A stretch of 37,119 nt of DNA from an uncultured Jatrophihabitans sp. (GTDB taxonomy: Bacteria > Actinomycetota > Actinomycetes > Mycobacteriales > Jatrophihabitantaceae): assembly GCA_964252095.1 (NCBI GenBank), contig CAXUNA010000004.1, forward strand, positions 1,788 to 38,906, read 5' to 3'. Shown piece after piece: positions 20,220 to 37,021 of the stretch. The translations under genes were made by a program, and so were the position numbers. The notes beneath the pieces were generated by a model. That model searched no databases, was not told the origin of the DNA, and saw only the letters and a program-made list of their open reading frames with translations. Numbering within the stretch: position 1 is the first letter of the stretch; every line of letters starts with the position of its first letter.

Positions 20220-20231
20220 CTGTCTAGAGTG

Positions 20232-20255: not shown

Positions 20256-20270
20256 CCCAGGGAGCCAGCG

Positions 20271-21425
20271 ATGTCCGCCTTCGAACTGTCCGAGGACCAC
20301 GAGACCTTCCGCAAGGTGGTGCGTGACTTCGCCGAGAAGGAGGTCGCCCCGCACGTCGCCGAGTGGGACCGCGAACACCGCCTGCCGCTCGACGTCGTCA
20401 CCGCGATGGGCGACCTCGGCCTGTTCGGCCTGGCCGTCCCGGAGGAGTACGGCGGCGCCGGAGCGGACTTCACGACGCTGTGTGTGGCCATCGAGGAACT
20501 CGGCCGGGTCGACCAGTCGATCGGCATCACCCTGGAAGCCGGCGTTGGGCTCGGCATCAACCCGATCCTCACCTACGGCAACGAGGACCAGAAGCAGACC
20601 TGGCTGCCCGACCTCGTCGCCGGCCGCGCACTCGCCGGTTTCGGCCTCACCGAACCCGAGGCGGGTTCCGATGCCGGAGCGAGCAAGACCCGCGCCGTGC
20701 TCGACGGCGACCAGTGGGTCGTCAACGGCGCCAAGGCGTTCATCACCAACTCCGGCACCGCGATCACCTCGGTCGTCACCATCACCGCCAAGACCGCCGA
20801 CAACGAGATCTCCAGCATCCTGATCCCGGCGGGCACCGACGGGTTCATCGTCGAGCCGCCGTACTCCAAGCTCGGCTGGCACATCAGCGACACCCACGGC
20901 CTGACCTTCGACAACTGCCGCGTGCCCGAGGCCAACCTGCTCGGTGAGCGCGGCCAGGGCTTCCGGCAGTTCCTCGCCGTCCTCGACGACGGCCGCATCG
21001 CCATCGCGGCGCTGGCCGTCGGGCTCACGCAGGGCTGCCTCGACCTGTGCGTCGACTACGCCAAGAGCCGCGAGACGTTCGGGGTGCCGATCGGCGCGCG
21101 GCAGGGCATCGCCTTCCAACTCGCGGACCTCGCCGTGTCGGTGGAGGCCGCCCGCCTGCTGACCTACAAGGCGGCGGCCCTGAAGGACGCGTCGCGACCG
21201 GCCAAGGAGATCAAGCAGGCGGCGTCGATCGCCAAGCTGTACTCGTCGGAGGCCGCCGTCACCGCAACGAGGGTCGCCACCCAGGTGTTCGGTGGCAACG
21301 GCTTCATGGAGGAGTACCCCGTCGCCCGGTTCTACCGCGACGCCAAGATCCTCGAGATCGGCGAGGGCACCTCGGAGGTCCAGCGGATGCTCATCGCGCG
21401 CGGGCTCGGGCTGCCGGTCCAGTGA
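20271..21425 (+). CDS. Acyl-CoA dehydrogenase (short/branched-chain type)
   Basis: FGLTEPEAGSDAGASKT, WVVNGAKAFITNSG, catalytic end YRDAKILEIGEGTSEVQRMLIARGL. ATG preceded by AGGGAG. Confidence 0.92.
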   Translation: MSAFELSEDHETFRKVVRDFAEKEVAPHVAEWDREHRLPLDVVTAMGDLGLFGLAVPEEYGGAGADFTTLCVAIEELGRVDQSIGITLEAGVGLGINPILTYGNEDQKQTWLPDLVAGRALAGFGLTEPEAGSDAGASKTRAVLDGDQWVVNGAKAFITNSGTAITSVVTITAKTADNEISSILIPAGTDGFIVEPPYSKLGWHISDTHGLTFDNCRVPEANLLGERGQGFRQFLAVLDDGRIAIAALAVGLTQGCLDLCVDYAKSRETFGVPIGARQGIAFQLADLAVSVEAARLLTYKAAALKDASRPAKEIKQAASIAKLYSSEAAVTATRVATQVFGGNGFMEEYPVARFYRDAKILEIGEGTSEVQRMLIARGLGLPVQ

Positions 21426-22945: not shown

Positions 22946-23124
22946 CCGCCACCGACATCGAGGTCCGCGGCACCGACGACCCCGCCGCGATCGCGGTCGT
23001 CGTCGCGCTGCTCGGTCGCCACGAGCCGACGGCTCGGACGCCGACCGGTGTCGCCGCCTGGCAACAGACCCGACGCGCGGCCCTGCGGCGCCCGCATCGA
23101 CGACCCCACCGGGGGGCCGGCTGA
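22942..23124 (+). CDS. Acyl-CoA carboxylase epsilon-subunit-like small protein
   Basis: 60 aa; IEVRGTDDPAAIAVVVALLG resembles the ...VVRG.PT.EE.AAL.AVL... signature of AccE peptides. GTG 22942 overlaps the carboxyltransferase stop (GTGA). Confidence 0.55.
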   Translation: MTATDIEVRGTDDPAAIAVVVALLGRHEPTARTPTGVAAWQQTRRAALRRPHRRPHRGAG

Positions 23125-23265
23125 CCTGGACGAGACCCTCGATGGTGTCGCGGCCGCGGTCGCCGACACTCACCGACGGTCCGTCGCCACCCGTCGAGTG
23201 CTTCGGGTTCCACGCATCCCGTCGCGGCTGATCGACGCGTTGCTGGACCGGGGCGTCCAGACGGA

Positions 23266-24519
23266 TCAGATCGTCCGCTGGGGTCGCCACAGCCCGCCCG
23301 CCACGACGGCGCAGCCGGCGCCGAACAGGGCGACGGCGTGCCACCCCCAGGTCGCGGAGAGCACGCCGGTGACCGCGGAGGCGGCGGCGCTGGTGATGAA
23401 CAGGCTCGCCATGTAGACCGAGTTCAGCCGGGCGCGGGCGTCGGGGCGCAGGGCGTAGACGTCGCGCAGGCTGAGCACCTGGTGCGTCTGCACCGCGAGG
23501 TCGAGCAGGACGCCACCGACCGCCAGCAGCACGACGCTGCCGGCGCCGAACCCGGCGACCGCCATCGCGACCAGCGTGGTGACGATCGCGAGCGCCCGGC
23601 CGCGGACGCCGTGCCCGCGGTCACCGAGTCGCCCGGCGACCGGGGCCGCGGCGGCGCCGGCCGCGCCGATGAGGGCGAACAGTGCGACCTGGGTCTGCGA
23701 CAGTCCGTGGGCGGAGACCAGTTCGAAGGTGACGCCCGTCCAGAACGCGGTGAACGCCGCGAACAGCAGCGCCTGGCTGGCGGCCCGGCGCATCAGCACC
23801 GGCTCCTCGACGACGAGGCGGGCGGTGGACGCGATCAGCCGCGGGTACCGCGCGGTGCTCTCCGGGCGACGCTCCGGCAACAGCTTCCGGATGGCCACGG
23901 CGATGACGATCATCAGCACGGCCGACAGGCCGAAGATCGCGCGCCAGCCCCAGAGCGCGGCGACGAAACTGCTGACCGAACGGGCCAGCATGATCCCCAG
24001 CAACAGGCCGCTGGTGACCCGGCCGACGACCGAACCCCGGCTCTCCGGCGGCGCGAGGTGGGCGGCCAGCGGGACGAGCACCTGGGCGACCACCGAGGTG
24101 AGGCCGACGGCGCCGAGCGCGACGAGCAGGACGGCGAAGTTCGGGGCGAACGTCGCGCCCACCAGCGTCAGCGCCGTGGCGCCGAGGATCGTCGACGTGA
24201 GCCGCCGGTTCTCCACCAGGTCCCCGAGCGGCACGAGCAGGATCAGACCGATCGCGTACCCGATCTGGGTCAACGTCACGAGGAACGCGGCCGACCCGTT
24301 GCCGACGTGCAGGGAACGCCCGATGAGTTCGAGCAGCGGTTGGGCGTAGTAGAGGTTGGCCACGGCCGCGCCGGTGGCGACCGCCAGCAGCAGGACGACG
24401 GCCGTACCGGGCTGCTTCGTGGCGACCCCGCTGGTGTCGGGGGTCGTGCTGGCAGCTGCCGCGACGGGTGCGACGCGCTCGACATGCTCCGTGGAGGACA
24501 CGGTCGTGCTCCTGTTCAT
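23266..24519 (-). CDS. MFS transporter (12-TMS type)
   Basis: NLYYAQPLLELIGRSLHV...TQIGYAIGLILLVPLGDLVENRRL (motif A-like), with hydrophobic helices throughout. First ATG at 24519; the ORF extends to TTG 24534. Confidence 0.88.
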   Translation of the reverse strand: MNRSTTVSSTEHVERVAPVAAAASTTPDTSGVATKQPGTAVVLLLAVATGAAVANLYYAQPLLELIGRSLHVGNGSAAFLVTLTQIGYAIGLILLVPLGDLVENRRLTSTILGATALTLVGATFAPNFAVLLVALGAVGLTSVVAQVLVPLAAHLAPPESRGSVVGRVTSGLLLGIMLARSVSSFVAALWGWRAIFGLSAVLMIVIAVAIRKLLPERRPESTARYPRLIASTARLVVEEPVLMRRAASQALLFAAFTAFWTGVTFELVSAHGLSQTQVALFALIGAAGAAAAPVAGRLGDRGHGVRGRALAIVTTLVAMAVAGFGAGSVVLLAVGGVLLDLAVQTHQVLSLRDVYALRPDARARLNSVYMASLFITSAAASAVTGVLSATWGWHAVALFGAGCAVVAGGLWRPQRTI

Positions 24520-24571
24520 GGACGATGCGTCCAACTAGACGCCACGTCCACAAAGTACACCGGACCCGCGA

Positions 24572-25234
24572 TCATTCCCGCGACCGGATCCCGGCGACGA
24601 GTTGGTCCACGGAGTCGATCGCGAACTGCTCGGTCAGCGGCCGGTGGCCCATGAGCAGGCGGTAGTAGATCGGCGCGAACACGTGGTCCATCGCCACGTC
24701 GACGTCGGTGTCGGCGGCGAACTCGCCGGCGGCGATCCCGGCTTCCACGATCGCGACCACCGAGGTCCGACGCGGCGAGAGCCACTGGTCCCGCAGCGCG
24801 TCGGCGAGCTCGGGCTGGCTCTGCGCCTCGGCCACCAGGCTGCGCATGAGCGCGCCGGCCGGAGAGGTGAACAACCGGACCAACTCCACCGCGAGCACCC
24901 GCAACGCCTCACCGGCCGGCACCCCGGCCGGCACCTGCCCGAGGGGGTCGGCGCGCAGCATGAACCCCTCCATGGCCACCGCACCCCGCGACGGCCACCA
25001 GTTGTAGATCGTCTGCTTGCTGACTCCCGCCCGCCCCGCGATCGCCTCCATGGTCGCGGCCGACAGCCCGCCCTCGAGCATCAGATCGCCCGCCGCGGCG
25101 AGGATCGCCGCGCGGCGGGATTCGTCGCGCGGCCGACCGCGACGCCGGTCGGAACCGTCGACCGAAGCGTGAGAGGGCACCTCGGCATTGTGGCCGCCCG
25201 GGCCACCCTGCGACCGACCGCCTCGCGCGTCCAC
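24572..25234 (-). CDS. TetR/AcrR-family transcriptional regulator
   Basis: HTH region RRAAILAAAGDLMLEGGLSAATMEAIAGRAGVSKQTIYNWWPSRGAV. Immediately upstream of, and co-directional with, the MFS gene. Start GTG 25234 or 25180. Confidence 0.88.
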   Translation of the reverse strand: MDARGGRSQGGPGGHNAEVPSHASVDGSDRRRGRPRDESRRAAILAAAGDLMLEGGLSAATMEAIAGRAGVSKQTIYNWWPSRGAVAMEGFMLRADPLGQVPAGVPAGEALRVLAVELVRLFTSPAGALMRSLVAEAQSQPELADALRDQWLSPRRTSVVAIVEAGIAAGEFAADTDVDVAMDHVFAPIYYRLLMGHRPLTEQFAIDSVDQLVAGIRSRE

Positions 25235-25295
25235 GCCGGATGGCGAGGCGGCAGCGGTCGGCTCCGCCTGCGACGGGCGTCAGCGGTGAGGCGCC

Positions 25296-25967
25296 TCAGG
25301 CGTGCGGTCGGTCAGCGCCGGGTGACGGCGCGGTTCCACGCGAGGTCGACCTCCGGACGGGACGTCGTCGTGGCTTCGGCAACACCCGGTCGGCGAGCGC
25401 CGACGCGAGCAGGGCCTCGGTGGCGTCGTCGACGACGACGTCGGCCTCGGCGCGTGCGAGCCGGCCGGAGGCGACGAGAGCGGCTGCGCCCTGCATGGTG
25501 GCCGCGAACAGCAGCTTGAACCGGGTGCGGCCATCGTCGCCGGTGTCGCCGGCGGCCGGTTCTGCCAGTGCTTCGTCGAGGACCTGGAACAACCGGGCGG
25601 CCGCGTGCTCCACGGGGTCGGACCCGCCGGCGACCTTCGTCGCGAACATCAGCTCCATGAGCGCGGCGTCGTCGACCGCGAAGTCGACGTACGCGTGGCC
25701 GACCAGACGCAGACGCTCCGCCATGTCGCCGGAGCGGGACAGCGCCTCCTCGACGAGGTGGGTGAGCCGCGCGAAACCCTGGACGGCCAGGGCATCGAGC
25801 AACGCCCGGCGGTCGACGAAGTGGGCGCGCGGCGCTCCGTGACTGACGCCGGCCCGCCGAGCGAGATCCCGCAGCGACAACCCGTCGGCCCCCGCCTCGC
25901 GCAGCACCACCTCGGCCTGTTCGAGCAGCACGGCCCGCAGGTTGCCGTGGTGGAACGGTCGGGACAC
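25296..25967 (-). CDS. TetR/AcrR-family transcriptional regulator
   Basis: FHHGNLRAVLLEQAEVVLREAGADGLSLRDLARRAGVSHGAPRAHF. GTG start at 25967. Confidence 0.9.
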   Translation of the reverse strand: MSRPFHHGNLRAVLLEQAEVVLREAGADGLSLRDLARRAGVSHGAPRAHFVDRRALLDALAVQGFARLTHLVEEALSRSGDMAERLRLVGHAYVDFAVDDAALMELMFATKVAGGSDPVEHAAARLFQVLDEALAEPAAGDTGDDGRTRFKLLFAATMQGAAALVASGRLARAEADVVVDDATEALLASALADRVLPKPRRRPVRRSTSRGTAPSPGADRPHA

Positions 25968-26004
25968 ACCGTCATCGTAGAGCGACCTAGACGTTGCCTA
26001 GTTT

Positions 26005-26019
26005 CTAGACAGTGTCTAG
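26005..26019. promoter_or_regulatory. Perfect 15-bp palindrome, candidate TetR operator
   Basis: CTAGACAGTGTCTAG (7-bp arms, 1 central base) lies 10 nt before the SDR ATG. A related CTAGACGTTGCCTAG sits just upstream (25987-26001). CTAG is otherwise rare in this GC-rich DNA. Confidence 0.65.
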
Positions 26020-26028
26020 TCTGGCGTC

Positions 26029-26907
26029 ATGGCCACCTCATCGCCCCTGCCCGACCTGACCGGTCGCACCGTCGTCGTCACCGGCGCGTCCAGCGGGATC
26101 GGCCTCGCCACCGCACGAGCGTTCGGCGCCGCCGGCGCGCGCGTCGTGCTCGCCGTGCGCAACGTGTCGAAGGGCGACGACGCCGCCGCCACCGTTCCCG
26201 GTGACGCCGTCGTGCGTCGGCTCGACCTCGCCGACCTCGCGTCCGTCCACGCCTTCGCCGACGGGTGGGATGACGGCCCGATCGACGTGCTCGTCAACAA
26301 CGCCGGGGTCTCGGTGCCGACGCTGCAACGCACTCGCGACGGTTTCGAGATGCAGTTCGGCACGAACCACCTCGGCCCGTTCGCGCTGACCACCCTGCTG
26401 TTGCCGCACGTCACCGGCCGGGTCGTGTCGCTGTCGTCGCAGGCCGAGCGGGCGGCCCGGCTCGACCTCGACGACCTCAACTGGGAACGTCGGCCCTACA
26501 AGGAATCCGCGGCCTACGCGGTGTCGAAGCTCGCCACCTTGCTGTTCACCGCCGAGCTCCAACGCCGGTTGACCGCGGCCGGGTCGACGGTTCTCGCCAC
26601 GGCTGCCCACCCCGGGCTGGTGGCGACGAACATGACCGGCCAGACCACCGGCCTCGTCGGCCTGCTCACCACGCTGTTGGCGCAGACCCCCGAGGCCGGG
26701 GCGCTCCCCGTGCTCCTCGCCGCCACCGGCGACGTGCCCGGTGGCGCCTTCACCGGCCCGCGCCGCCTGCTGCACATGCGCAGCGGCGCCGAGCTCATCG
26801 GCCGGTCGAGGAAGGCCCGTGACGTCGAGCTGGCGGCGCGGTTGTGGGCGGCGTCGGAGGCGATGACCGGCGTGACATTCGCTCCTGCCGCAACGCGCCC
26901 ACGCTGA
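26029..26907 (+). CDS. SDR-family oxidoreductase (retinol-dehydrogenase-like)
   Basis: TGRTVVVTGASSGIGLATA, NNAGV, catalytic YAVSKLA. Confidence 0.9.
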   Translation: MATSSPLPDLTGRTVVVTGASSGIGLATARAFGAAGARVVLAVRNVSKGDDAAATVPGDAVVRRLDLADLASVHAFADGWDDGPIDVLVNNAGVSVPTLQRTRDGFEMQFGTNHLGPFALTTLLLPHVTGRVVSLSSQAERAARLDLDDLNWERRPYKESAAYAVSKLATLLFTAELQRRLTAAGSTVLATAAHPGLVATNMTGQTTGLVGLLTTLLAQTPEAGALPVLLAATGDVPGGAFTGPRRLLHMRSGAELIGRSRKARDVELAARLWAASEAMTGVTFAPAATRPR

Positions 26908-27105
26908 GCTCCCCGAGCACACCGGGCCGCTCCATCCGCGCGCCGGCGGACCACGCCGGGCGGTCCTCGATCGGATGTGCACCGTGATGCGACTCCGGGC
27001 TTGGCGAGCACCGGTCAGGGGTCCAGATGGCGGCTCGGTGCAGGCCGGCACCAGCGCCGTGGTCGTCGACGTCGCCGCCCGCGAGCCGGGAATGCGGACG
27101 GTGCA

Positions 27106-28470
27106 TCAGGAATCGAAGCGTTCCTCGTGCAGCTGGGCGTCCGGGAGGCCGGCGTCGCGCAGTGCTTTCCGCACGCCGGCCGCGAGGCGTGGTGAGCCAC
27201 AGAGGTAGACGTCACGGTCGCTCAGGTCGGGTGCGAAGCGCCGGAACAGCTGTGGGGTGAACGGCCCGATCCGGTCGCCGAGCAGGTAGTGCACGCGAGC
27301 GCCGCGGGCTCGGGCGATCGCGTCGAGCTCGTGGCCGAAGATCACCTCGTCGGCCGAACGGGCGCGGTACAGCAGCAGCAGGTCCTGACCGGGCGCCAGC
27401 GGCATCGTCTCGAACAACGCCCGCATCGGGGTGATCCCCACACCGCCGGCGACCAGCAGGACGTTGCGGCGGGTGCGCCGTCCGGCCGTCACCGCGCCGT
27501 ACGGACCTTCCGCCATCAACCACGTCCCGGGTTCCAACGCCTGCAGCAGGCGGCTCCCGTCGCCGAGTGACTTCACCGTCAGCCGCAGGTGTGTGCTCGT
27601 CGGCGCCGCGGACAGGGAGAACGGGTGCGCCGTCTGCCAGAGGTCGGGGGTGAGGAACCGCCACCGGAAGAACTGGCCCGATTCCGCCTGCAGGTCGTCG
27701 AGGTCGTGGCCGGTGACATGCACCGAGACCACACCGGGTCCCTCCCGCACCACCGACTCGACCCGCATCCGGTGCCGGGTGGAGTTGCGCAGCGGCGTCA
27801 CGACGCGGTGGAGGACGACGAGGGCGAACACCTGGGTGTAGAGCAGCGCCCAGAGCACCTGGACGATCCGGTGACCGGCGAGGTCGGGACCGGCGAGCTG
27901 GTGCACGAAGCTCAGCGCGACAGCGATGTAGGTGAGCAGGTGGACCGCATGCCACCGCTCGTGGGCGATCCGCTTGCGCGCCAGGCGGATCGACATGCCG
28001 GCCACCACGAGGATCAACACCGTCCCGATCGACGCGGCGATCAACCACGGCATCCGCAGCACCTGCCACAGGGCCGGCCCGACCGACTCACCACGCGCCT
28101 GCGACCAACCCACGACCGCCGCCCAGGCGTGCACGACGATCAGCAGCACCACGGCACGCCCACCGCGGCCGTGCCAGCGGGCGAGCCGGTCCGCGCCGAC
28201 ACCCCTTTCCAGGGCGGGAGTCCTGGACATCAAGCCGATCATCACCACCACCGCGTACCCCGCCAGCATGCCGGCGACGTGCGCGACGAGCGGGGCGGGG
28301 CGGTACGGCGCGGGGAGACTCGCCGCGAGCAGGACCGGCCAGACCGCGACGGCCAGCCCACCGGCTGCGATCGCCAGGAGCACGGCGTCGGGTGACACCC
28401 GTCGGCCCCGGCCGGCGGCTGGAAGGACCGGGTGCGCAACGGGCCGAGCCGTCGCGGTGGGCACGCTCAC
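27106..28470 (-). CDS. Ferric-reductase-like transmembrane flavocytochrome (NOX/FRE family: bis-heme TM domain + FAD- + NAD-binding domains), paralogue 1
   Basis: His pairs WHGRGGRAVVLLIVVHAW and WHAVHLLTYIAVALSFVHQL; FAD motif HPFSLSAAP; NAD motifs VAGGVGITPMRALF and YLCGSP. Start GTG 28470 (GAGGA upstream) gives an N-terminal length matching paralogue 2; the rest of the 633-aa ORF is Arg-rich shadow. Confidence 0.85.
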   Translation of the reverse strand: MSVPTATARPVAHPVLPAAGRGRRVSPDAVLLAIAAGGLAVAVWPVLLAASLPAPYRPAPLVAHVAGMLAGYAVVVMIGLMSRTPALERGVGADRLARWHGRGGRAVVLLIVVHAWAAVVGWSQARGESVGPALWQVLRMPWLIAASIGTVLILVVAGMSIRLARKRIAHERWHAVHLLTYIAVALSFVHQLAGPDLAGHRIVQVLWALLYTQVFALVVLHRVVTPLRNSTRHRMRVESVVREGPGVVSVHVTGHDLDDLQAESGQFFRWRFLTPDLWQTAHPFSLSAAPTSTHLRLTVKSLGDGSRLLQALEPGTWLMAEGPYGAVTAGRRTRRNVLLVAGGVGITPMRALFETMPLAPGQDLLLLYRARSADEVIFGHELDAIARARGARVHYLLGDRIGPFTPQLFRRFAPDLSDRDVYLCGSPRLAAGVRKALRDAGLPDAQLHEERFDS

Positions 28471-28772
28471 CGCCCACGTCCTCGTCCACCACGCGGACCG
28501 GCGACGGCGGGAGCGGTCGGCACGGCTGCCGTCGGACCGGGGGCGGTGCCGGCGGTGACCGCCTCCGTCGTCACGGCGGGTGCGGGTCCCGGTGCGACCG
28601 GCGAGACCGACGGGGCGGTGAGACCGAGCCAGAGCGCGACCCCGGCCGACAGCGAGGTGACGACGACGCTGGTACGGCGTGCGCGGCGACGGCCGTCGGC
28701 GCGTGCCGAGCGATCGGGCGCCGCGGCGAGGTGGGACGGGGACCAGCCGAGAGTGGCGGTGGGACTGACCAT
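28467..28772 (-). CDS. Hypothetical membrane-anchored Pro/Ala/Thr-rich small protein (101 aa), coupled to ferric-reductase paralogue 1
   Basis: ATG 28772 preceded by AAAGGA. RRRARRTSVVVTSLSAGVALWLGLTA looks like an N-in TM anchor followed by a PAT-rich linker. Its stop overlaps the downstream GTG (GTGA at 28467-28470). Low-complexity, so uncertain. Confidence 0.35.
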   Translation of the reverse strand: MVSPTATLGWSPSHLAAAPDRSARADGRRRARRTSVVVTSLSAGVALWLGLTAPSVSPVAPGPAPAVTTEAVTAGTAPGPTAAVPTAPAVAGPRGGRGRGR

Positions 28773-28826
28773 GTCGTCCTTTGTCGCAGCCGCGGCTGGC
28801 ATCGACCCGCCGTACGGCTGGACACC

Positions 28827-28876
28827 ACCTGTCAGAGAGCGGCACCCCGGCCAGGCACTTGCCAGGCACCTGGCAG
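28827..28876. promoter_or_regulatory. Cluster of CCTG(T/G)CA half-sites in the divergent promoter region between the ferric-reductase-1 operon and the response regulator
   Basis: ACCTGTCAG at 28827-28835 and ACCTGGCAG at 28868-28876. GCCAGGCAC at 28850-58 and 28861-69 (11-bp spacing). TGCCAGG-CA-CCTGGCA forms a 16-bp palindrome at 28860-28875. Confidence 0.55.
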
Positions 28877-28936
28877 GTGACGCACAGACGGCGGCGAGCG
28901 GACGCACGGGACAATGGGCCGGGTGAGGACCCCCCG

Positions 28937-29656
<720 letters not shown>

Positions 29657-29657
29657 C

Positions 29658-31187
29658 GTGGCCGCGCGGACGCGTCCGACGGGTCGGGTCCGGGGGTTCA
29701 CCGCGCGGATTCCGCTCCGGGTCAGGCTCGTCGTCGCCGTACTGGGTCTGCTCGTGTTCGCCCTGCTCGCCTCCGGCGTCATCGGTGTCACGACGATGCG
29801 CAGCTACCTCACCGGCCGTGTCGACTCGCAGCTGCGCGCCGTCGCCGAACACCCGGGCGACGACGTCCCGGTGCAGGACGTGACCGGCGGTGGGACCACG
29901 GGCGGTGCTGGAGGCGGACCCGGTGGTGGGCGTGGTGGCCGCGGCGGCCACCAGTTGGCCAGCGCGTTCGTCGTGCAGGTCCTGGGCACCACCGGCGCCG
30001 TCACCTACCAGGCCAGCGACCTCATCGATGCCACCGAACCGCTTCCCCGGCTGCCGACGGTCACCGCGACGACCTCGACGGGGAACGGGTCACGCACCCT
30101 CACCGTCGGCGCCATCTCGGGGAACGGCCAGTGGCGGGTGCTGGTCGAACCCGTAAGGCTGACCGACGGAACGGCCGGGACCCTGCTCGTCGCCCAGAGC
30201 CTCGGCGACGTGACGGGAACCGTGGACCGACTCGCTCTCATCCTGCTCGTCATCGGAGCCGCGACCGTCGTGGTGATGGCCGCGCTCGCGTACGTCATCG
30301 TCCGACGCAGCCTGCGGCCCCTGCGCGCGGTCGAACACACCGCGACCGCGATCGCCGCGGGCGACCTCACCCAGCGTGTGCCGACCAGCGACCCCCGCAC
30401 CGAGGTCGGTCAGTTGGCCGCCGCGCTCAACACGATGCTCGGCGAGATCGAGACCGCGTTCGACCAACGTTCCCGGTCCGAGGCGACCGCGCGCGAATCC
30501 GAGACACGCATGCGTCGCTTCGTCGCCGACGCCAGTCACGAACTGCGCACCCCCCTGACGTCGATCCGGGGTTTCGCCGAGCTCTACCGGCAGGGCGCGG
30601 TGCCGAGTCCCGTCGATGTCGACCGCGTCATGCGACGCATCGAGGACGAGGGGCAACGGATGGGCCTGCTCGTCGAGGATCTCCTGACGCTCGCCAGGCT
30701 CGATCAGCAGCGGCCGTTGACCCGGGTGCCGGTCGACCTGCTCGCCCTCGCGACCGACGCCGTCCACGACGCTCGTGCGATCGCGCCGGACCGATCCGTG
30801 AGCCTCACACTGGGCGCCACCGATCCTCCGCCCATCGTCACGGGTGACGAAGCGCGGCTGCGGCAGGTGGTCGGCAACCTCGTGGGCAATGCGTTGCGGC
30901 ACACGCCGCCCCGAAGTGCTGTTGCCATCGAGGTCGGCGCGACGAGGTCGGGCGACGTCGAACTCGCCGTGGTCGACGACGGTCCCGGCCTCTCGCAGAG
31001 CGATGCCGCACAGGTCTTCGAGCGGTTCTACCGCAGCGACCAGGCCCGCAACCGTGATGACGGCGGTACCGGGCTGGGGCTGTCCATCGTGGCGGCGCTG
31101 GTCGCGGCGCACGGCGGCACGGTGTGGGTGGAGACGGCACCGGGTGCCGGCGCCCGCTTCGTCGTGCGCCTCCCCCTCGCGGTCTGA
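29658..31187 (+). CDS. Sensor histidine kinase (2 TM, extracytoplasmic loop, HAMP, HisKA, HATPase_c)
   Basis: H-box FVADASHELRTPLTSIRGFAELY; N/G boxes VGNLVGNALRHTP, DDGPGL, GGTGLGLSIV. GTG 29658 is 1 nt after the RR stop, with GAGGA upstream. Confidence 0.92.
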   Translation: MAARTRPTGRVRGFTARIPLRVRLVVAVLGLLVFALLASGVIGVTTMRSYLTGRVDSQLRAVAEHPGDDVPVQDVTGGGTTGGAGGGPGGGRGGRGGHQLASAFVVQVLGTTGAVTYQASDLIDATEPLPRLPTVTATTSTGNGSRTLTVGAISGNGQWRVLVEPVRLTDGTAGTLLVAQSLGDVTGTVDRLALILLVIGAATVVVMAALAYVIVRRSLRPLRAVEHTATAIAAGDLTQRVPTSDPRTEVGQLAAALNTMLGEIETAFDQRSRSEATARESETRMRRFVADASHELRTPLTSIRGFAELYRQGAVPSPVDVDRVMRRIEDEGQRMGLLVEDLLTLARLDQQRPLTRVPVDLLALATDAVHDARAIAPDRSVSLTLGATDPPPIVTGDEARLRQVVGNLVGNALRHTPPRSAVAIEVGATRSGDVELAVVDDGPGLSQSDAAQVFERFYRSDQARNRDDGGTGLGLSIVAALVAAHGGTVWVETAPGAGARFVVRLPLAV

Positions 31188-31295
31188 CCAGCCGGTCTCG
31201 GATCCACGCGGGGATCCGCGCCCTCCGAGCAGCGACCGGGTTGCGGCCGTCCCCGCACGTCGTCCGGACCTCTGTCACCCCGGTGCGGCGTGGGT

Positions 31296-31326
31296 TCCTG
31301 TCGGCCACCTGTCAGAAACCTGTCAG
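31296..31326 (+). promoter_or_regulatory. Three direct repeats with exact 11-bp phasing (candidate OmpR-type response-regulator binding site) upstream of the DUF3500 gene
   Basis: TCCTGTCGG (31296-304), ACCTGTCAG (31307-315) and ACCTGTCAG (31318-326). About 100 nt upstream of ATG 31425. Confidence 0.6.
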
Positions 31327-31424
31327 CGGGAACGCCGGATTGCCAGCTTGGCTTGAGGTCCGTTTGAGGAGTGCTCCAGCAGGGTGTTCTGGACCCACAC
31401 GACGACAGAAGGCAGCTTTCACCC

Positions 31425-32642
31425 ATGTTCGACCGTCCTCCCCTCACGCACCTCCCCCGTCCGTACAAGGCTCATCTCAACCGGCGTACCGGCGCGATCG
31501 CCATCGCCTGCGTGAGCGCTGCCGTGATCGCCGGCTGCAGCGCCGCATCGATCACGAGCGAGTCCGCGTCCAGCACGGCGAGCGGTCAGCGCTCGGGCCC
31601 TCCCGGCGGGTTCCCCGGCGGCGGGGCGGGCGGTGGGCTGCAGACCTTCACCGCCGTCGACCTCGACACCGACGGCGCGAACGCCTCCGACGCCAACACC
31701 GCGGAGGTCGTCGCCGCCACCCAGGCTTTCCTCGCGACGCTCGACGCGACGACCGCCGGCAAGGTCGAGTACGACTTCTCCGACAACCAGTCCCGCCAGA
31801 CCTGGTCGAACTACCCGTCGCAGCAGGTGCCCCGCAAGGGCGTCGCGCTGTCCGACCTCACCGACACCTCCAAGGCCGCGGCGTTGGCGGTCGTCAAGAC
31901 CATGTTGAGCGCGCAGGGGTACTCGCAGGTCGAAGCCGTCCAGCAGGCCGACGACTGGCTGAAGGCGAACAGCTCGTCCGGCACCGACAGCTTCGGCTCG
32001 GACACCGACTACTACATCGCCGTCTACGGCACACCGTCGGCGACCGACCCGTTCATGGTGCAGTTCGGCGGTCACCACCTCGCCCGCAACTACACCTACA
32101 AGGGCACCACGGCGTCGATCACCCCGGACTTCACGGGCACCGAGCCGAAGTCCTTCACCGTCGGCAACACCGACGTGGAACCGCTGAAGGAGAAGGCCGG
32201 CACCCTGTTCTCGGTCTTCGACTCGCTCACCGACGAGCAGGACGCGAAGGCGAAGCTCGCGGGAACGATCAACGACATCCTCATGGGCCCCAGTGTCGAC
32301 AGCGGGAAGTTCCCGGCCACCGAGGGGGTGTCCGTCGGCGACCTGTCCGCGGCCCAGCAACAGCTCGTGCTCGCGGCCATCGCGGCGTGGGTGGACGACG
32401 CGGCACCGGCCGAGGCCGCGTCCCTGCTCGCGACCTACGAGGCTGACCTCAGCAAGACCACCATCGCCTACGCCAACAGCACCACGGTCGACGGCGAGAA
32501 CACGTACCTGCGCATCGACGGCCCGCGGGTGTGGATCGAGCTCGTGAACACCCGCAGTCAGAGCACCCCGAACGTCCATTACCACGGGGTGTACCGCGAC
32601 AAGACCGACGACTACGGCAGCACCAACCCCAGCACCCGATGA
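31425..32642 (+). CDS. DUF3500-family lipoprotein (unknown function)
   Basis: N-terminus NRRTGAIAIACVSAAVIAGC has a twin-Arg plus a lipobox (Cys codon at 31533). C-terminal HYHGVYRDKTDDYG matches my recollection of the conserved DUF3500 end; family assignment needs an HMM check. Confidence 0.7.
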   Translation: MFDRPPLTHLPRPYKAHLNRRTGAIAIACVSAAVIAGCSAASITSESASSTASGQRSGPPGGFPGGGAGGGLQTFTAVDLDTDGANASDANTAEVVAATQAFLATLDATTAGKVEYDFSDNQSRQTWSNYPSQQVPRKGVALSDLTDTSKAAALAVVKTMLSAQGYSQVEAVQQADDWLKANSSSGTDSFGSDTDYYIAVYGTPSATDPFMVQFGGHHLARNYTYKGTTASITPDFTGTEPKSFTVGNTDVEPLKEKAGTLFSVFDSLTDEQDAKAKLAGTINDILMGPSVDSGKFPATEGVSVGDLSAAQQQLVLAAIAAWVDDAAPAEAASLLATYEADLSKTTIAYANSTTVDGENTYLRIDGPRVWIELVNTRSQSTPNVHYHGVYRDKTDDYGSTNPSTR

Positions 32643-34015
32643 GCATCTGGTCACGGGCGACGCGAACGGTCGTGATCGGCTCGGCGGCTGTGCTCGCCGT
32701 CCTCGGCTCCGCTCCCCCGGTGGGGGCGCACCCGCTCAACACGTCGGCGGTGCTGCTCGACATCGGGACCGACGCGGTCACCGCCACCATCGAGCTGCCG
32801 CTGGACCAGCTCAGCGTCGCCCGTGACCAGCAGCTCACCGCGACGACCGTTCTGGAGTCGCCGACCCTGACCGGCCTGCGGGCCTACGTCCGGGCCCACG
32901 TGTCGGCGAGCGACGGCTCGGGACGGACGTGGACCACCCAGGTCGTGGGCGGGCACGTGGCGGAGATCGACGGCGCCGACAACCTCGTGCTCGACGCCAC
33001 GCTGAGACCCGACGGCGGAACGGTCGGCAGCTTCGTGCTCCACGACGACGCGGTCGTCGACCTCCTGATCTCGCACCGCATCTTCGTGTCGGCGCGCTAC
33101 GGCGACTCGGGGGACTACACCACCCTCGCCATGCTGTCGTGGCAGACGACGACCGTGCCGGTGGAATCGACCGCTCCGCCGGAGTCGCGAGGCTTCATCG
33201 CCGCGGTGCACCTCGGTTTCCAGCACATCAGCAGCGGCAGCGACCACCTGTTGTTCCTGATGATGCTGTTGCTACCAGCACCCCTCGTCGCCCGCACGAG
33301 ACGGTGGGTGCAGAGGTCGGACAGCGGGTGGACGGGTCTGCGGCGAACGGCGCGGCGGGTCGTGCACGTCGTGTCCGCGTTCGCGCTCGGGCACTCCGTC
33401 ACGCTCGCTCTCGGCGCGCTCGGCTGGGTGGCACTACCCGACCGCCTGGTCGAGTCCGGTATCGCGCTCTCGGTGTTCGTCTCCGCCGTGCACGCGATCA
33501 GGCCACTGGTCCGCCGCGGCGAAGCAGTCATCGGGTTCGGGTTCGGTCTGCTGCACGGGTTGGCCTTCGCCGCTCTCCTCGGACAGCTCGACCTGAGCCG
33601 ACGCGCACTCGTGACGACCCTGCTCGGTTTCAACCTCGGCATCGAACTGACGCAGCTCGCCGTTGTCGCGCTGGTGATGCCGTCTCTCGTGCTGCTGTCG
33701 GCGACCCCGCTCTATCCGAGGCTGCGAGTGCTGACCGCCCTCGTGGGCGCCGCCCTCGCGACCGGTTGGTTCGCCGAACGGGTGGGCGTCATCTCGACCA
33801 ATCCGTTGGAGCCGGTCGGCAACGCCTTGGTCGGACACCCGTTGGCGGTCGCGGGCGTCCTCGCCGGGGTGGCGGCGGTGTCAGGCATCCGGACGCGGCG
33901 AGCGACGTTTCGTGCCCTGCCGACACAGGTGGTGTGGCCGACGTCGGGCAGTGGTGCCGCAGACTGTCCGCCGGACCGTGTCGACCCGGAGCGACTGCTG
34001 GTGCCGGAGACCTGA
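32639..34015 (+). CDS. HupE/UreJ-like (HupE_UreJ_2 type) membrane protein with N-terminal extracytoplasmic domain
   Basis: Signal peptide ending ...PPVGA|HPLN. TM-domain motifs GFQHISSGSDHLLFLMMLLL, FALGHSVTLALG, GFGLLHGLAFA. ATG 32639 overlaps the DUF3500 stop (ATGA). Confidence 0.75.
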   Translation: MSIWSRATRTVVIGSAAVLAVLGSAPPVGAHPLNTSAVLLDIGTDAVTATIELPLDQLSVARDQQLTATTVLESPTLTGLRAYVRAHVSASDGSGRTWTTQVVGGHVAEIDGADNLVLDATLRPDGGTVGSFVLHDDAVVDLLISHRIFVSARYGDSGDYTTLAMLSWQTTTVPVESTAPPESRGFIAAVHLGFQHISSGSDHLLFLMMLLLPAPLVARTRRWVQRSDSGWTGLRRTARRVVHVVSAFALGHSVTLALGALGWVALPDRLVESGIALSVFVSAVHAIRPLVRRGEAVIGFGFGLLHGLAFAALLGQLDLSRRALVTTLLGFNLGIELTQLAVVALVMPSLVLLSATPLYPRLRVLTALVGAALATGWFAERVGVISTNPLEPVGNALVGHPLAVAGVLAGVAAVSGIRTRRATFRALPTQVVWPTSGSGAADCPPDRVDPERLLVPET

Positions 34016-34027
34016 TCCCGATCCGCC

Positions 34028-34052
34028 CTCGACCTCTGGTGCGCGGGTCGAG
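34028..34052 (+). terminator. Hairpin 13 nt after the HupE-like stop
   Basis: CTCGACC (34028-34) pairs with GGTCGAG (34046-52), 11-nt loop. No U-tract. Confidence 0.3.
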
Positions 34053-34150
34053 CTCCGGGGGCCAGGTGCCGACACCCGCCGCCAGCGCGGCCCACCATGA
34101 CTCGCACGTCGAGACCGTGCCGCTCGACCACGAGTCCTCACGGTCACCAC

Positions 34151-34182
34151 GGGCAGCTGCCGGACGTGTCCGGCGCCTGCCC
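34151..34182. terminator. Long GC hairpin in the convergent intergenic region (possible bidirectional terminator)
   Basis: GGGCAG-CTG-CCGGAC-GT-GTCCGG-CGC-CTGCCC: nested inverted repeats giving about 14 paired positions. Lies between the HupE-like stop (34015) and the ApbE stop (34240). Confidence 0.45.
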
Positions 34183-34239
34183 GTTCGGGGCGCACGGCAC
34201 GGCGGCCCAGAAGGCGACCCTGACGGCCACCGTGCTGAC

Positions 34240-35031
34240 CTACCTGGAGTGAGGAGTCGACCCGGGCCGGACGCCCCGCGGCCAGCCGACACTGGCCCGC
34301 CGCCGTCCGGTCCGGTCGACGGTGAGCAACTCGTAGCCGTCGACCGTGTCGATCCAGTCGAAGGCCGCGTCTCCCCGCGCGAAGGCGGCGGTGGCGTAGG
34401 CGTCGGCGAACGTCAGCGACTGCCCGACGACTGTTGCACTCAACAGCGGTCCGGCGACGGGCAGCCGGTCGAACGGGTGGTGGATGTGGTGCCCCCGCTC
34501 GGCCGTCCCCGAGGTCGCGACCGCGCCGTCGGTCAGCGACACCGTCGTGACCGTGCGGGTCCGCTCGCGCGGGTCGACCACACCGATCCGCCACGGCTGC
34601 GCACCCGCGGAACCGCGGACCCGCACGTCGCCGCCGCCGTTGACGCAGTGGTGGGCGAACCCCTTGTCCGCCAGCAACCAGCTCGCGCGTTCGACCGCCC
34701 AGCCCTTGACCAGGCCCGTGGGGTCGATCACGCCGGACCACAGCGGCGTGAACCACCCCTCGGTGTCGGTCCGCGCGGTGGCGCACAGGTCGAGCACGGC
34801 GGCGACGTCGGGATCGGCGTCGGCGAGGCGCAACTCACGCCGCTGCAGGCGGGAGACGTCGCTGTCGGGGCGGTAGGTGCTGAACACGGCGTCGACGTGG
34901 TGCAGCCACGCGACGTCCTCGGCCACCGCCGCCGCGGGCTCGGCGTCGTCGCGGATGTCGATCGAGAAGACCGTGCCCATACAGGGCTCGACGTGCACGG
35001 AACGCCCGGGGACGGCGGTCGGCGAGGTCAC
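34240..35031 (-). CDS. apbE: FAD:protein FMN transferase (ApbE family)
   Basis: ApbE-like N-terminus (EPCMGTVFSIDI), with FSTYRPDSDVSRL and GLVKGWAVE. GTG 35031 overlaps the FMN_bind stop (GTGA). No N-terminal signal peptide or lipobox visible. Confidence 0.8.
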   Translation of the reverse strand: MTSPTAVPGRSVHVEPCMGTVFSIDIRDDAEPAAAVAEDVAWLHHVDAVFSTYRPDSDVSRLQRRELRLADADPDVAAVLDLCATARTDTEGWFTPLWSGVIDPTGLVKGWAVERASWLLADKGFAHHCVNGGGDVRVRGSAGAQPWRIGVVDPRERTRTVTTVSLTDGAVATSGTAERGHHIHHPFDRLPVAGPLLSATVVGQSLTFADAYATAAFARGDAAFDWIDTVDGYELLTVDRTGRRRASVGWPRGVRPGSTPHSR

Positions 35032-35534
35032 AGGCCGGCCTGGTCCAGTGCACTCTGCAACGATGCGATGTACCCCTCGCTCGTGTAGGTGGCGCCCGAG
35101 ACCGTGTCGATGCCGGCGGTGCCGGCGGCCGTCGCCTCGGCGTTCAGCTGTGGCACCGCGTACTGGTTGATCTCGGCGTCGCGCGGGTTGTCCTGCGGGT
35201 ACTCGACGGCCTGAACCGCGGTCACCTTGCCGCCGGTGACCGTGATCTCCACCTGGACGGGGCCGTACCGGGTGTCGGCGGCCGCCCCCGTGTACGTGCC
35301 GGCCGCCGGGGCGGCGGACGACGAGGGGGCGGGCGTCGAGGTCGAGGGAACCGCCGCTGCCGCACTGTTCCCGGTTGTCGGGACCGCCGTGGTCGGCGCA
35401 GGCAGGGTCCCCCCGGTCGGACCGGCCGCCACGGCGGCCGGGAGGGTCGCGGTGGCGAGCGGGTGGGTCTTGAACGACAGCAGCATCACCAGTCCGGTGA
35501 CCGTGCCGACGAGGGCGAACAGGGCGCGTCGCAT
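35028..35534 (-). CDS. Membrane-anchored FMN-binding (FMN_bind) domain protein, predicted ApbE substrate
   Basis: N-terminal anchor MRRALFALVGTVTGLVMLLSF, PAT-rich linker, then an FMN_bind domain with the flavinylation motif IDTVSGATYTSEGY (SGAT codons at 35088-35099). Confidence 0.85.
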   Translation of the reverse strand: MRRALFALVGTVTGLVMLLSFKTHPLATATLPAAVAAGPTGGTLPAPTTAVPTTGNSAAAAVPSTSTPAPSSSAAPAAGTYTGAAADTRYGPVQVEITVTGGKVTAVQAVEYPQDNPRDAEINQYAVPQLNAEATAAGTAGIDTVSGATYTSEGYIASLQSALDQAGL

Positions 35535-35561
35535 GGTGCGGGTCTCGTCTCTCGTGAGGGA

Positions 35562-36959
35562 TCAGAACGTGAACGATTCGTGGTGGATCTGACGACGTGG
35601 GACCTTCGCCGTGCGCAACGCGGCCACCGTCGCGGTGGCCATGCCGTCGGGACCGCAGACGAAGACGTCGTGGTCGCGCAGGCCGGGGACATTCGCCGCC
35701 AGCGACTCCGCCGAGAGCGGGTCGTGGCCCAGATCCCGGCGGTGACCCACCAGGAAGTGCACCCGCGCCCCGCGAGCGCGGGCGATCGCCTCGATCTCGT
35801 GTCGGAAGACGACGTCGTCCTCACGCCCCACCCGGTACAGCAGCGTGAGCTCGCCGGACCGGGCGGGCACGGTCTGGAACAGAGCACGCAGCGGGGTGAT
35901 CCCGATGCCGCCGGCGATGAGCAGGACCTTCTCCCGCCGTCGACGGGCGGCGGTCATCGCGCCGTACGGTCCCTCGGCGAGCACGCGGGTACCGGGCCGC
36001 AGGTCGCGCAACGCGGCACTGTGACCGCCGAGGTCCTTGACGGTGATGCGCAGTTTCCCGGGGATCGGTGCCGCCGAGAGCGAGTACGGGTTCGAGGCCC
36101 ACCACGACCCCCGGGTGAGGAACCGCCACCGGAAGAACTGCCCGGCCTGCGGCGCGAGCTCGTCGACGCGTCGACCGGTCACCACCACCGAGACCACTCC
36201 CGGCCCCTCCACGTCGACGGCGTCGACCCGCATGCGGTGGCGCCAGGCCTGCCGGGCCGGGACGAGCACGCGGTACCAGAGCACCGCCGCGCCCACCGCG
36301 ACGTAGAGCGCGGCCCAGACCACCCTCGCCGCGGGGTTCGCGACGAACTCGGCCCCGGTGGAGAACTGGTGGCTGAACGCCAGCGCCACGGCGAGGTACG
36401 TGTAGAAGTGCAGGTGGTACCAGGTCTCGTACGTCATCCGCCGGCGGGCCGCCCGGGCCGAGACCGCCCCGACCCCGACCAGCAGACCGCCGGCGACCGT
36501 GGCCATGAGGACGTCCGGGTAGCTCAGCAGCAGGGTCCCGGCCTGGTCGAGGATCCCGGCGTGGGCGCTGACCGCGTAGCCCCACGTGATGAGCAGCGCG
36601 TGGGCCACCACCAGCGACACGCTGTAACGCCCGCCCCGCGCGTGCCACACCGCGAGACGGTCCGCGCCGATGCCGCGTTCGAGCAGCGGAATGCGCGCCA
36701 TCAGCGCGATCAGCACCACGACGCCGTAGCCCGCGAGCAACCCCGTGATGCGTCCGGCGTTGGTGAGCCAGTCACCGAGGCCGTGGATCGCCGGCGTGTC
36801 CGTCCACCACAGCGCGACCACGGCGCCGGCACCCGCCACGACCGTGGCCCACACCGCGGAGGGACGGGCGCGGGCCGGTGCCCGGTCCGCCGGACGGGAC
36901 GGCGTGGGCGCCGGAGGACGGTCCGGGTGTGGCCGGGACGTCGCCAGAGTGCTGGTCAC
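35562..36959 (-). CDS. Ferric-reductase-like transmembrane flavocytochrome (NOX/FRE family), paralogue 2
   Basis: His pairs WHARGGRYSVSLVVAHAL and WYHLHFYTYLAVALAFSHQF; NPYSLSAAP; IAGGIGITPLRALF; VFVCGP. GTG 36959 preceded by GGGAGAAAGGA. Confidence 0.9.
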   Translation of the reverse strand: MTSTLATSRPHPDRPPAPTPSRPADRAPARARPSAVWATVVAGAGAVVALWWTDTPAIHGLGDWLTNAGRITGLLAGYGVVVLIALMARIPLLERGIGADRLAVWHARGGRYSVSLVVAHALLITWGYAVSAHAGILDQAGTLLLSYPDVLMATVAGGLLVGVGAVSARAARRRMTYETWYHLHFYTYLAVALAFSHQFSTGAEFVANPAARVVWAALYVAVGAAVLWYRVLVPARQAWRHRMRVDAVDVEGPGVVSVVVTGRRVDELAPQAGQFFRWRFLTRGSWWASNPYSLSAAPIPGKLRITVKDLGGHSAALRDLRPGTRVLAEGPYGAMTAARRRREKVLLIAGGIGITPLRALFQTVPARSGELTLLYRVGREDDVVFRHEIEAIARARGARVHFLVGHRRDLGHDPLSAESLAANVPGLRDHDVFVCGPDGMATATVAALRTAKVPRRQIHHESFTF

Positions 36960-37001
36960 CGGTCCTTTCTCCCGGACGCGGCTCTCACGACCCTCTGCAC
37001 T

Positions 37002-37021
37002 TCCTGTACGCCTGCTGTCAA
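37002..37021. promoter_or_regulatory. Two degenerate CTGT(C/A)A repeats with 11-bp phasing upstream of ferric-reductase paralogue 2
   Basis: TCCTGTACG (37002-010) and TGCTGTCAA (37013-021), 43-62 nt upstream of GTG 36959. Weaker match to the ACCTGTCAG motif seen at 28827 and 31307/31318. Confidence 0.3.

Follow-up and report, generated by a model that had tools for sequence, protein, structure and literature searches.

To our knowledge, the clusters known as MsrQ-like are among the commonest ApbE-linked systems in Actinobacteria and none of them has an established function, and the description of the anglerase-type HupE/UreJ-2 permeases dates only from 2025, and we know of no partner proteins for them. 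Both types of system are found side by side in the window analyzed here, a stretch of 37,119 nucleotides from an uncultured Jatrophihabitans sp. (contig CAXUNA010000004.1), in which nine genes at 27106-36959 make up a composite of three modules for electron export, metal capture and regulation. Two of the three modules are already described, and neither is characterized physiologically. The MsrQ-like cluster, identified bioinformatically by Méheust et al. (2021, eLife; PMC8238504), comprises a PF01794 bis-heme protein, which in most cases has PF00175 at its C-terminus, and beside it an FMN-binding gene and apbE. It was recorded 1,797 times in 1,468 genomes and is "broadly conserved in Actinobacteria"; NAD(P)H is the proposed donor, and iron reduction was proposed for the 153 clusters that carry VIT1 (PMC8238504). 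The anglerase permeases fall into Ang-1, found in Pseudomonadota, and Ang-2, found in Actinomycetota (Nat Commun 2025; PMC12537917). Both bind Cu2+ at a mono-histidine brace with a Kd of 62-74 nM, their N-terminal domains are proposed to "fish" metal ions for delivery to the permease and show no substantial oxidase or peroxidase activity, and the neighbors reported for Ang-2 are metallophosphatases and DUF916, not DUF3500 (PMC12537917). The combination of genes in the window had been said, in an initial sequence-only reading, to fit no characterized system, which is too strong, as the Fre2-FMN_bind-ApbE genes correspond to an MsrQ-like cluster and the HupE_UreJ_2 protein to the permease class with an N-terminal histidine described in 2025. 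What is new in the locus is the pairing of a DUF3500 lipoprotein with such a permease, a third class of N-terminal-histidine domain on HupE/UreJ-2, a predicted operator and regulon, a small open reading frame (ORF) coupled to the reductase Fre1, and the repeated recruitment of NOX-like/flavinylated electron exporters to this type of locus.

As the GC content of the window is about 72%, genes were called from the periodicity of GC at third codon positions (GC3) together with ORF boundaries. The nine genes, with strand and main support, are the following:

27106-28470, minus strand: Fre1, NOX-like reductase (Pfam, motifs, homologues)
28467-28803, minus strand: small membrane-anchored ORF (translation, conserved motif)
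28937-29656, plus strand: response regulator (RR; Response_reg and Trans_reg_C)
29658-31187, plus strand: histidine kinase (HK; HAMP, HisKA and HATPase_c)
31425-32642, plus strand: DUF3500 lipoprotein (Pfam E 3e-72)
32639-34015, plus strand: HupE_UreJ_2, the HupE/UreJ-2 permease (PF13795, E 7e-44)
34240-35031, minus strand: ApbE (Pfam E 4e-40)
35028-35534, minus strand: FMN_bind protein (Pfam E 5e-10)
35562-36959, minus strand: Fre2, NOX-like reductase (Pfam, motifs)

The gene list and the families proposed from the sequence were all borne out by Pfam profile searches, DUF3500, HupE_UreJ_2, FMN_bind and ApbE being matched as expected. The two reductases both match Ferric_reduct (PF01794; E 5e-14 and 8e-14) and NAD_binding_1 (PF00175) above the cut-off; the expected NAD_binding_6 was matched by neither, and FAD_binding_8 stays slightly under its cut-off (19.7 and 21.2 bits against 22). 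The DUF3500 and HupE genes are joined by an ATGA overlap, and FMN_bind and ApbE by a GTGA overlap.

The DUF3500 gene proved inseparable from its permease in related loci. Fifty-five DUF3500 loci, one genome per species, were fetched and searched with all window proteins, and in every one of the 40 with at least 50% DUF3500 identity (hereafter the close loci) HupE_UreJ_2 lies directly 3' of DUF3500 on the same strand, in several cases with overlapping stop and start codons, as a constant operon partner. The pairing recurs in Duganella, Mariniflexile and Myceligenerans, and so also in Proteobacteria and Bacteroidota. No report of it was found. DUF3500 is seldom mentioned in the literature searched; it is absent from PMC12537917 and its supplements, and DUF3500/HupE is mentioned neither in the main text of PMC8238504 nor in the part of its supplement that was covered, a part too limited for its silence to prove much. 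Duplications of the pair also occur: Winogradskya consettensis (L032, 10001-16219) carries a tandem duplication of the module with three DUF3500 and two HupE copies, and a metagenome-assembled genome (MAG; L020) has a second, divergent pair at 16548-18632. An apparent 3.6-kb insertion that splits DUF3500 in the same MAG (10900-14500) was dismissed as an assembly artefact rather than an insertion element, since its GC content is 4-25% and it consists almost only of A and T.

The HupE_UreJ_2 protein belongs to the N-terminal-histidine, anglerase-type metal-capture permeases. A histidine is exposed at the mature N-terminus, directly after the predicted signal-peptide cleavage site (A-x-A|H31-P-L-S-T), and the motif HX5DH (H196...D202 H203) stands at the first helix of the membrane domain. 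Both are invariant in 20 of 20 aligned homologues, as are additional His, Glu and Asn residues of the membrane domain. HX5DH has a role in Ni transport. The AlphaFold2 model (pLDDT 81) places the strands of a beta-sandwich at 36-175, followed by helices at 182-425, and the best Foldseek matches of the sandwich are Cu-bound Ang-1 (9gce, E 1.5e-4) and the periplasmic Zn-binding ZrgA/PA4063. The protein thus shares with the published anglerase-HupE/UreJ-2 permeases a cleaved signal that exposes His1, a beta-sandwich, a flexible linker and a PF13795 domain with HX5DH, and its transmembrane domain is 36% identical to the RbAng-1a protein in BLASTP. It differs from them in the sequence of its N-terminal domain and in its partner, which here is DUF3500. 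In BLASTP comparisons of the N-terminal domain with RbAng-1a (X6KU28) and MmAng-2a (T5KLJ9) no similarity was found, and only the membrane domain or the HX5DH segment aligns; because similarity to either Ang-1 or Ang-2 is not detectable by BLAST, the domain represents a third sequence class beside them, with the same architecture. Unlike the canonical HupE/UreJ nickel permeases, the protein matches PF13795 alone and not PF04955, and hydrogenase or urease genes are absent from the annotated part of the window (16.4-37 kb). By homology with the published anglerase permeases, a role in metal handling is predicted.

The partner protein combines a lipobox (IAGC), a Gly/Pro-rich tether and a PF12006 core in which H217, H218, E372, H385 and H387 are invariant in the alignment. 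It is probably exported by the Sec route, because the lipobox is kept across the subfamily and twin arginines are not. Among solved structures it has a single relative, 9x86 (E 4e-27 by hmmsearch and 4e-16 by Foldseek, with a target TM-score of 0.84), which the PDB title gives as the dehydratase ApmL/Amc20 of amipurimycin biosynthesis; literature searches for Amc20/ApmL and for PF13795 by name returned nothing usable past that title. A fungal DUF3500 protein of a gallate pathway has been proposed to cleave the ring of 1,2,3,5-tetrahydroxybenzene, a compound that accumulates when the gene is deleted (bioRxiv 10.1101/2023.06.06.543907). The His-His, Glu and His-x-His residues are common to 9x86, the fungal enzyme and the lipoprotein subfamily, and because they are conserved from enzymes to lipoproteins they suggest a metal site.

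The regulatory module consists of an OmpR-family RR and an HK with two transmembrane helices, an extracytoplasmic loop and HAMP, HisKA and HATPase_c domains. Orthology of this two-component system (TCS) to named systems was considered and rejected, as the scores stay below the cut-off for every NCBIfam equivalog. Direct repeats spaced 11 bp apart are the geometry typical of sites bound by the OmpR/PhoB family, and repeats of this kind occur in the two promoter regions that flank the TCS genes:

28828-28888, strand not assigned: candidate RR operator A, an exact CCTGTCAG at 28828-28835 and an 11-bp-periodic array at 28847-28888
31194-31223, plus strand: hairpin directly 3' of the HK stop, without a T-run (inverted repeat search), a probable terminator or attenuator
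31297-31326, plus strand: candidate RR operator B, CCTGTCGGccaCCTGTCAGaaaCCTGTCAG, which consists of three direct repeats spaced 11 bp apart and lies 99-128 nt 5' of the DUF3500 ATG
31337-31359, plus strand: conserved promoter-like box GGATTGCCAGCTTGGCTTGAGGT, 3' of operator B, in a block near-identical in L059

Operator B is the sole triple array of its kind in 37 kb, where 0.015 are expected, and operator A is located where the RR gene and the small ORF-Fre1 operon diverge. The exact 8-mer CCTGTCAG is present in three copies in the whole window on both strands, two of them in operator B and the third at 28828. A scan for spaced triples on both strands ranked 31297 first (23/24) and 28847-28888 second (19/24), a score of 19 being reached by none of the simulated windows in 60 runs. 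In L059, whose DUF3500 is 82% identical and which has no adjacent TCS, the repeat array and the box (GGATTGCCAG..TGGCTTGAGGT) form the best-conserved upstream block, the rest of the upstream region having diverged from that of the window. Comparable arrays are present 5' of DUF3500 in other genera, too. Those scoring at least 18 lie just 5' of the gene in L002 and L060/L061, and arrays scoring at least 16 were found upstream of DUF3500 in eight of 48 loci, a set from which the window was left out; among control upstream regions the figure was 25 of 740 (Fisher p 4.6e-4). The TCS and DUF3500-HupE are combined in a single operon with overlapping genes, RR-HK-DUF3500-HupE, in two Actinoplanes loci (L018, L033). 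In an Acidimicrobiales MAG (L040, 4972-10165) an RR 52% identical to that of the window and an HK have on their 3' side first a CCTGTGAGaaaTCTGTGAG array and next an operon of YHYH lipoprotein, DUF3500 and YceI, in which no HupE/UreJ-2 gene is present; different secreted partners stand here under what looks like the same type of regulator. The shared CCTGTCAG arrays tie the TCS to both the DUF3500-HupE and the small ORF-Fre1 operons. The TCS is very probably a dedicated regulator of DUF3500-HupE, and its probable targets in the window include, in addition, its own genes and small ORF-Fre1, in each case through putative binding of the RR to the arrays.

The electron export module is of a type already described. 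Fre2-FMN_bind-ApbE, an operon of which Fre2 is the first gene, corresponds in its sequence features to a standard MsrQ-like flavinylation-associated cluster. The motif details given in the sequence-only reading are all present, overlaps included: the two reductases, paralogues with 49% identity, carry heme-ligand His pairs at H100/H114 and H177/H190 in Fre1 and H106/H120 and H184/H197 in Fre2, with a spacing of 14 and 13 residues in both, the FAD motifs HPFS and, as a variant in Fre2, NPYS, and the NAD motifs GGVGITP and GGIGITP. The feature set of the NOX family is thereby represented by bis-His ligands, the HPFS-type motif, GGxGITP and a C-terminal CG[SP], and the solved structure nearest to Fre2 by sequence match is the NOX of S. 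pneumoniae (8qt6/8qq7, E 1.6e-11). The FMN_bind protein starts with M-R-R and a transmembrane anchor (N-in), continues with a Pro/Thr/Ala linker typical of exported domains and then has a single FMN-binding domain, in which the flavinylation motif DTVSGAT occupies residues 143-149 and contains the expected SGAT. It matches the Streptomyces azureus SaFMN3 domain (8p2a, E 8e-24), which when co-expressed with ApbE carries covalent FMN with an Em of -184 mV and is reoxidized by O2 (PMC10339131). By this homology, covalent FMN is predicted on the acceptor threonine of the FMN_bind protein, and the flavinylated partner suggests for Fre2 an acceptor other than O2 reduced to superoxide. ApbE is of a short form (263 aa) without a signal peptide, a stop codon just upstream blocking any N-terminal extension, and its homologues in L010, L034 and L038 are likewise without one. 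Export by Tat as an explanation for the signal-less ApbE was considered and found no support: FMN_bind proteins begin with M-R-R or M-K-R straight into the transmembrane helix without an n-region, that of L038 has KR, and DUF3500 homologues often lack twin arginines.

The claim that NAD(P)H-derived electrons are exported to a flavinylated extracytoplasmic acceptor agrees with the published MsrQ-like model (PMC8238504), with which the locus shares a PF01794-PF00175 protein followed in one operon by FMN_bind with its flavinylation motif and apbE, a mostly actinobacterial distribution and a proposed path from NAD(P)H to an extracytosolic flavin. It differs from that model in having two paralogous reductases, one of which, Fre1, is accompanied by a small anchored ORF and not by FMN_bind/ApbE, in an ApbE without signal peptide, and in DUF3500-HupE/UreJ-2 as neighbor instead of VIT1.

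Fre1 itself is a NOX-like NAD(P)H flavocytochrome b with a six-helix bis-heme membrane domain and FAD and NAD domains, and its more than 6,000 homologues are labelled "predicted ferric reductase" by their sources. The small anchored ORF listed beside it in the sequence-only reading turned out to be real. It encodes about 101-111 aa (alternative start at 28773) with one transmembrane helix and the motif ALWLGLTAPSVSPVAP, matches no Pfam family, and overlaps the start of Fre1 by GTGA, which points to translational coupling. The motif WLGLTAP(A/S)VSPV recurs in small ORFs directly 5' of Fre1 orthologues in three sampled genomes, at the following positions:

L056, 9765-10001: small ORF counterpart (conserved motif)
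L057, 9734-9994: small ORF counterpart (conserved motif)
L058, about 9800-10000: small ORF counterpart (conserved motif)

In L057, another Jatrophihabitans, a TCS is divergent from small ORF-Fre1, as in the window. We speculate that the small protein might be a small subunit of the Fre1 enzyme, loosely comparable to p22phox. Another ORF at 26795-27106 (minus strand) was considered for the small ORF and rejected, as its translation looks non-coding and the real one lies upstream of Fre1.

How closely the reductases belong with DUF3500-HupE was judged from their neighborhoods. When neighboring proteins were clustered over 48 high-GC DUF3500 loci, the most recurrent families after DUF3500 and HupE were OmpR-type regulators (13 loci) and NOX-like reductases (11 genes in eight loci), all other recurrent neighbors being regulators or lineage-specific genes. 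The co-occurrence looked for was found in part: a NOX-like gene lies within 10 kb of DUF3500-HupE in eight of the 40 close loci and is lacking in the other 32. Several families are represented by the eight loci, with no fewer than six layouts and with flavinylated acceptors of two kinds. The arrangement is convergent, as in the window, in Actinokineospora terrae (L010), and co-directional in L038 (Fre2-FMN_bind-ApbE-DUF3500-HupE). All parts are present in another order in Actinoplanes (L034), RR-HK-Fre1-Fre2-FMN_bind stands a few kb away in L012 and L030, and only Fre1 is present in Solicola (L005). In an Actinomycetota MAG (L001, 4154-12384), whose DUF3500 at 83% identity is the closest to that of the window among genome loci, ApbE on the minus strand is followed by NOX-like reductase-DUF2271-RR-HK-DUF3500-HupE/UreJ-2 on one strand. 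DUF2271 is a different family of ApbE substrates (PMC8238504), and in L001 it likely replaces FMN_bind as the flavinylated acceptor. With roughly one to three such reductases per multi-Mb genome, adjacency within 10 kb was estimated to arise by chance in about 1% of loci; the observed 20%, set against the 32 loci without a reductase, means that the association is real but facultative. Other genes were met near DUF3500-HupE as well, namely, directly on its 3' side, a PepSY-domain protein in L005 with related proteins in L009 and L010 (the copy in L010 without a Pfam match), a DUF347 membrane protein directly 3' of HupE in three loci (L004, L014, L017), and a P-type ATPase once (L030, 12502-15081).

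On this basis we tentatively propose, as a possibility somewhat short of an even chance, that the three modules work together at the cell surface in capturing a transition metal reductively, the metal being Cu or possibly Fe or Ni. The OmpR-type TCS would bind the 11-bp-periodic CCTGTCAG repeats and through them control the promoter of its own genes as well as two operons, the divergent small ORF-Fre1 and the downstream DUF3500-HupE/UreJ-2. The DUF3500 lipoprotein, with its conserved four-His/Glu site, would be made together with the permease, the tethered N-terminal-histidine domain of which, by analogy with the published homologues, may capture the metal and feed it to the HupE/UreJ-2 channel. 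With NAD(P)H of the cytoplasm as donor, Fre1 and Fre2 would move electrons by way of FAD and two b hemes to the outer face of the membrane, and Fre2, following the MsrQ-like model, would pass them to the membrane-anchored protein whose FMN is covalently attached by ApbE. The connecting step that we infer is that the electrons sent out serve to reduce Cu(II) or Fe(III), either at DUF3500 or the histidine domain or close by, after which the reduced ion would be imported. Reductive metal acquisition, raised earlier as a hypothesis, is still a reasonable one, and it is now better motivated.

Several observations weigh against such cooperation. Besides the 32 close loci without a reductase, neither a TCS nor a reductase lies near the closest relatives of the DUF3500 gene (L059, L060, L003, L004), and in all three genomes sampled for Fre1 orthologues no DUF3500, FMN_bind or ApbE gene is nearby. 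Among the DUF3500 proteins known so far, which are enzymes presumed to be cytoplasmic (a dehydratase structure and a putative ring-cleavage enzyme), none is a metal carrier. The TCS stays below the cut-offs of the NCBIfam heavy-metal CopRS/CusRS models TIGR01386/TIGR01387 (HK 207 against 292.6 bits, RR 190 against 279), and the PhoB, MtrA and CseB models score similarly. The ApbE proteins of the FMN_bind-type actinobacterial MsrQ-like clusters have neither signal peptide nor lipobox, as seen in the window, L010, L034 and L038, though the domain on which they act has its predicted location on the outer side of the membrane. A shared operator was also sought 5' of Fre2, where only CCTGTACG and GCTGTCAA were found (array 15/24 by hand count, not significant); with two weak repeat copies at this promoter, there is no support for a flavinylation operon regulated in common with the others. 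The view of the 10 kb as one functional unit, taken in the sequence-only reading, accordingly holds in part: DUF3500 and HupE are paired throughout the close loci and the CCTGTCAG arrays link TCS, DUF3500-HupE and small ORF-Fre1, whereas the Fre2 operon has no significant array, reductases accompany a minority of the close loci, and the nearest relatives do without both TCS and reductase.

Much of this is what would be expected if the modules were independent neighbors, TCS-DUF3500-HupE serving metal uptake or homeostasis without a dedicated reductase, and Fre1 and Fre2-FMN_bind-ApbE being extracytoplasmic reductases of general use, for example on iron or oxygen. Orthologues of Fre1 have a very wide distribution and stand by themselves in the genomes that were sampled, MsrQ-like clusters, in about 1,468 genomes, are far more widespread than the DUF3500-HupE pair, and the absence of a reductase within 10 kb from 80% of the close loci and of a significant operator 5' of Fre2 fits the same picture. 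Against it stand the excess of adjacency estimated above (20% against about 1%), which is spread over several families, layouts and two flavinylated partners, and the second operator array in a promoter region that also serves small ORF-Fre1. We consider independence unlikely, though it is a contender to be taken seriously.

The catalytic precedents of the DUF3500 family lead to a further explanation, in which the lipoprotein would be an extracytoplasmic metalloenzyme, oxygenase- or dehydratase-like, acting on a substrate from the envelope or the environment, for example polyphenols, so that the outcome is conversion and not import; HupE/UreJ-2 would then supply or exchange the metal, and the NOX-like/flavin chain would provide reducing equivalents or H2O2/superoxide. 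The only characterized or solved members, 9x86 (ApmL/Amc20) and the fungal protein, are enzymes, with which the protein in the window shares Pfam family, fold and the HH, E and HxH residues; SaFMN3 in its reduced form reacts with O2; and in L040 DUF3500 occurs with YHYH and YceI and no permease. These relatives differ from it, however, in that ApmL/Amc20 and the fungal protein would, judging from their biosynthetic and catabolic roles, act in intracellular pathways, whereas the protein here is a lipoprotein with a long Gly/Pro tether whose operon partner is a permease and not a pathway enzyme. So strict a pairing with a membrane protein of permease type is met more typically in transport, no recurring substrate genes (hydrolases, transporters of organic compounds) were found in the neighborhoods, and the lack of substantial oxidase or peroxidase activity in anglerase domains (PMC12537917) also speaks against it, which makes the enzymatic explanation doubtful. 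That the locus is an envelope-stress or oxidative-defense unit, with NOX-like enzymes making or consuming reactive oxygen species at the surface and the TCS sensing envelope damage, is highly improbable, since the cluster has no protease, chaperone, catalase, superoxide dismutase or cell-wall genes and the conserved operator target is an operon of metal-binding type, even if the NOX-family architecture with its similarity to S. pneumoniae NOX, and a TCS that resembles the MtrAB, CseBC and WalK-type envelope systems as much as metal sensors, would be in keeping with it.

The left boundary of the cluster is sound, as the neighbors on this side (an SDR, two TetR regulators and an MFS transporter) look unrelated; on the right, the window ends 160 nt past the start of Fre2. 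The region 16423-26907 encodes a HAD hydrolase, MarR, MFS, a protein with a MerR domain whose gene overlaps that of a carboxyl transferase, another MFS, two TetR and an SDR, none of which recurs beside DUF3500 loci. An SDR also adjoins the Fre1 orthologue in L058, probably by coincidence. Scans of the 72% GC DNA for consensus sigma-70 promoters and intrinsic terminators returned nothing, and the hairpins came from the repeat search, which gave one further feature between the convergent ends of HupE and ApbE:

34149-34184, strand not assigned: inverted repeat with 17-bp arms (repeat search), a likely bidirectional terminator

The 225-nt spacer in which it lies (34016-34239) shows coding-like GC3 periodicity in the ApbE frame, yet it holds only a 31-codon ORF, and may be a remnant of a longer ApbE C-terminus.

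Whatever their task, electron exporters have been recruited beside DUF3500-HupE repeatedly and apparently independently, and the secreted DUF3500 proteins gain a first functional context. The locus offers a concrete and genetically tractable model of a way in which actinobacteria of the soil could link NAD(P)H in the cytoplasm to the reduction and uptake of extracellular metal. In eukaryotes, NOX-family metalloreductases, the yeast Fre1/Fre2 acting with Ctr1 or Ftr1, and STEAP, reduce Cu(II) or Fe(III) before import. The likeness of the window to these systems lies in an NAD(P)H-FAD-bis-heme reductase that sends electrons to the outer face; the differences are that a flavinylated mediator and DUF3500 are interposed, that the permease is unrelated to Ctr/Ftr and that the coupling would have to be inferred. 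A bolder and rather improbable extension of cooperative metal capture is that DUF3500 is the terminal cupric/ferric reductase, or a redox-active metallochaperone, in a bacterial counterpart of eukaryotic reductive uptake. Electrons would reach it through the flavinylated mediator from Fre2, and perhaps through the small anchored protein from Fre1, the reduced ion would be handed to the HupE/UreJ-2 channel's histidine-brace domain, and the TCS would switch the pathway through the CCTGTCAG repeats. If true, this would assign a first physiological function to the actinobacterial MsrQ-like systems and to secreted DUF3500. A bacterial parallel is provided by the PepSY-like/DUF2271/DUF4198 clusters of Gram-negatives (PMC8238504), in which DUF4198 is an N-terminal-histidine Ni-binding protein (PMC12537917). 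Here too a flavin-based exporter stands beside a secreted metal binder with an N-terminal histidine, and DUF2271 is also used in L001, whereas the cytochrome (PepSY-like there, NOX-like here), the metal-binding proteins and the phylum differ.

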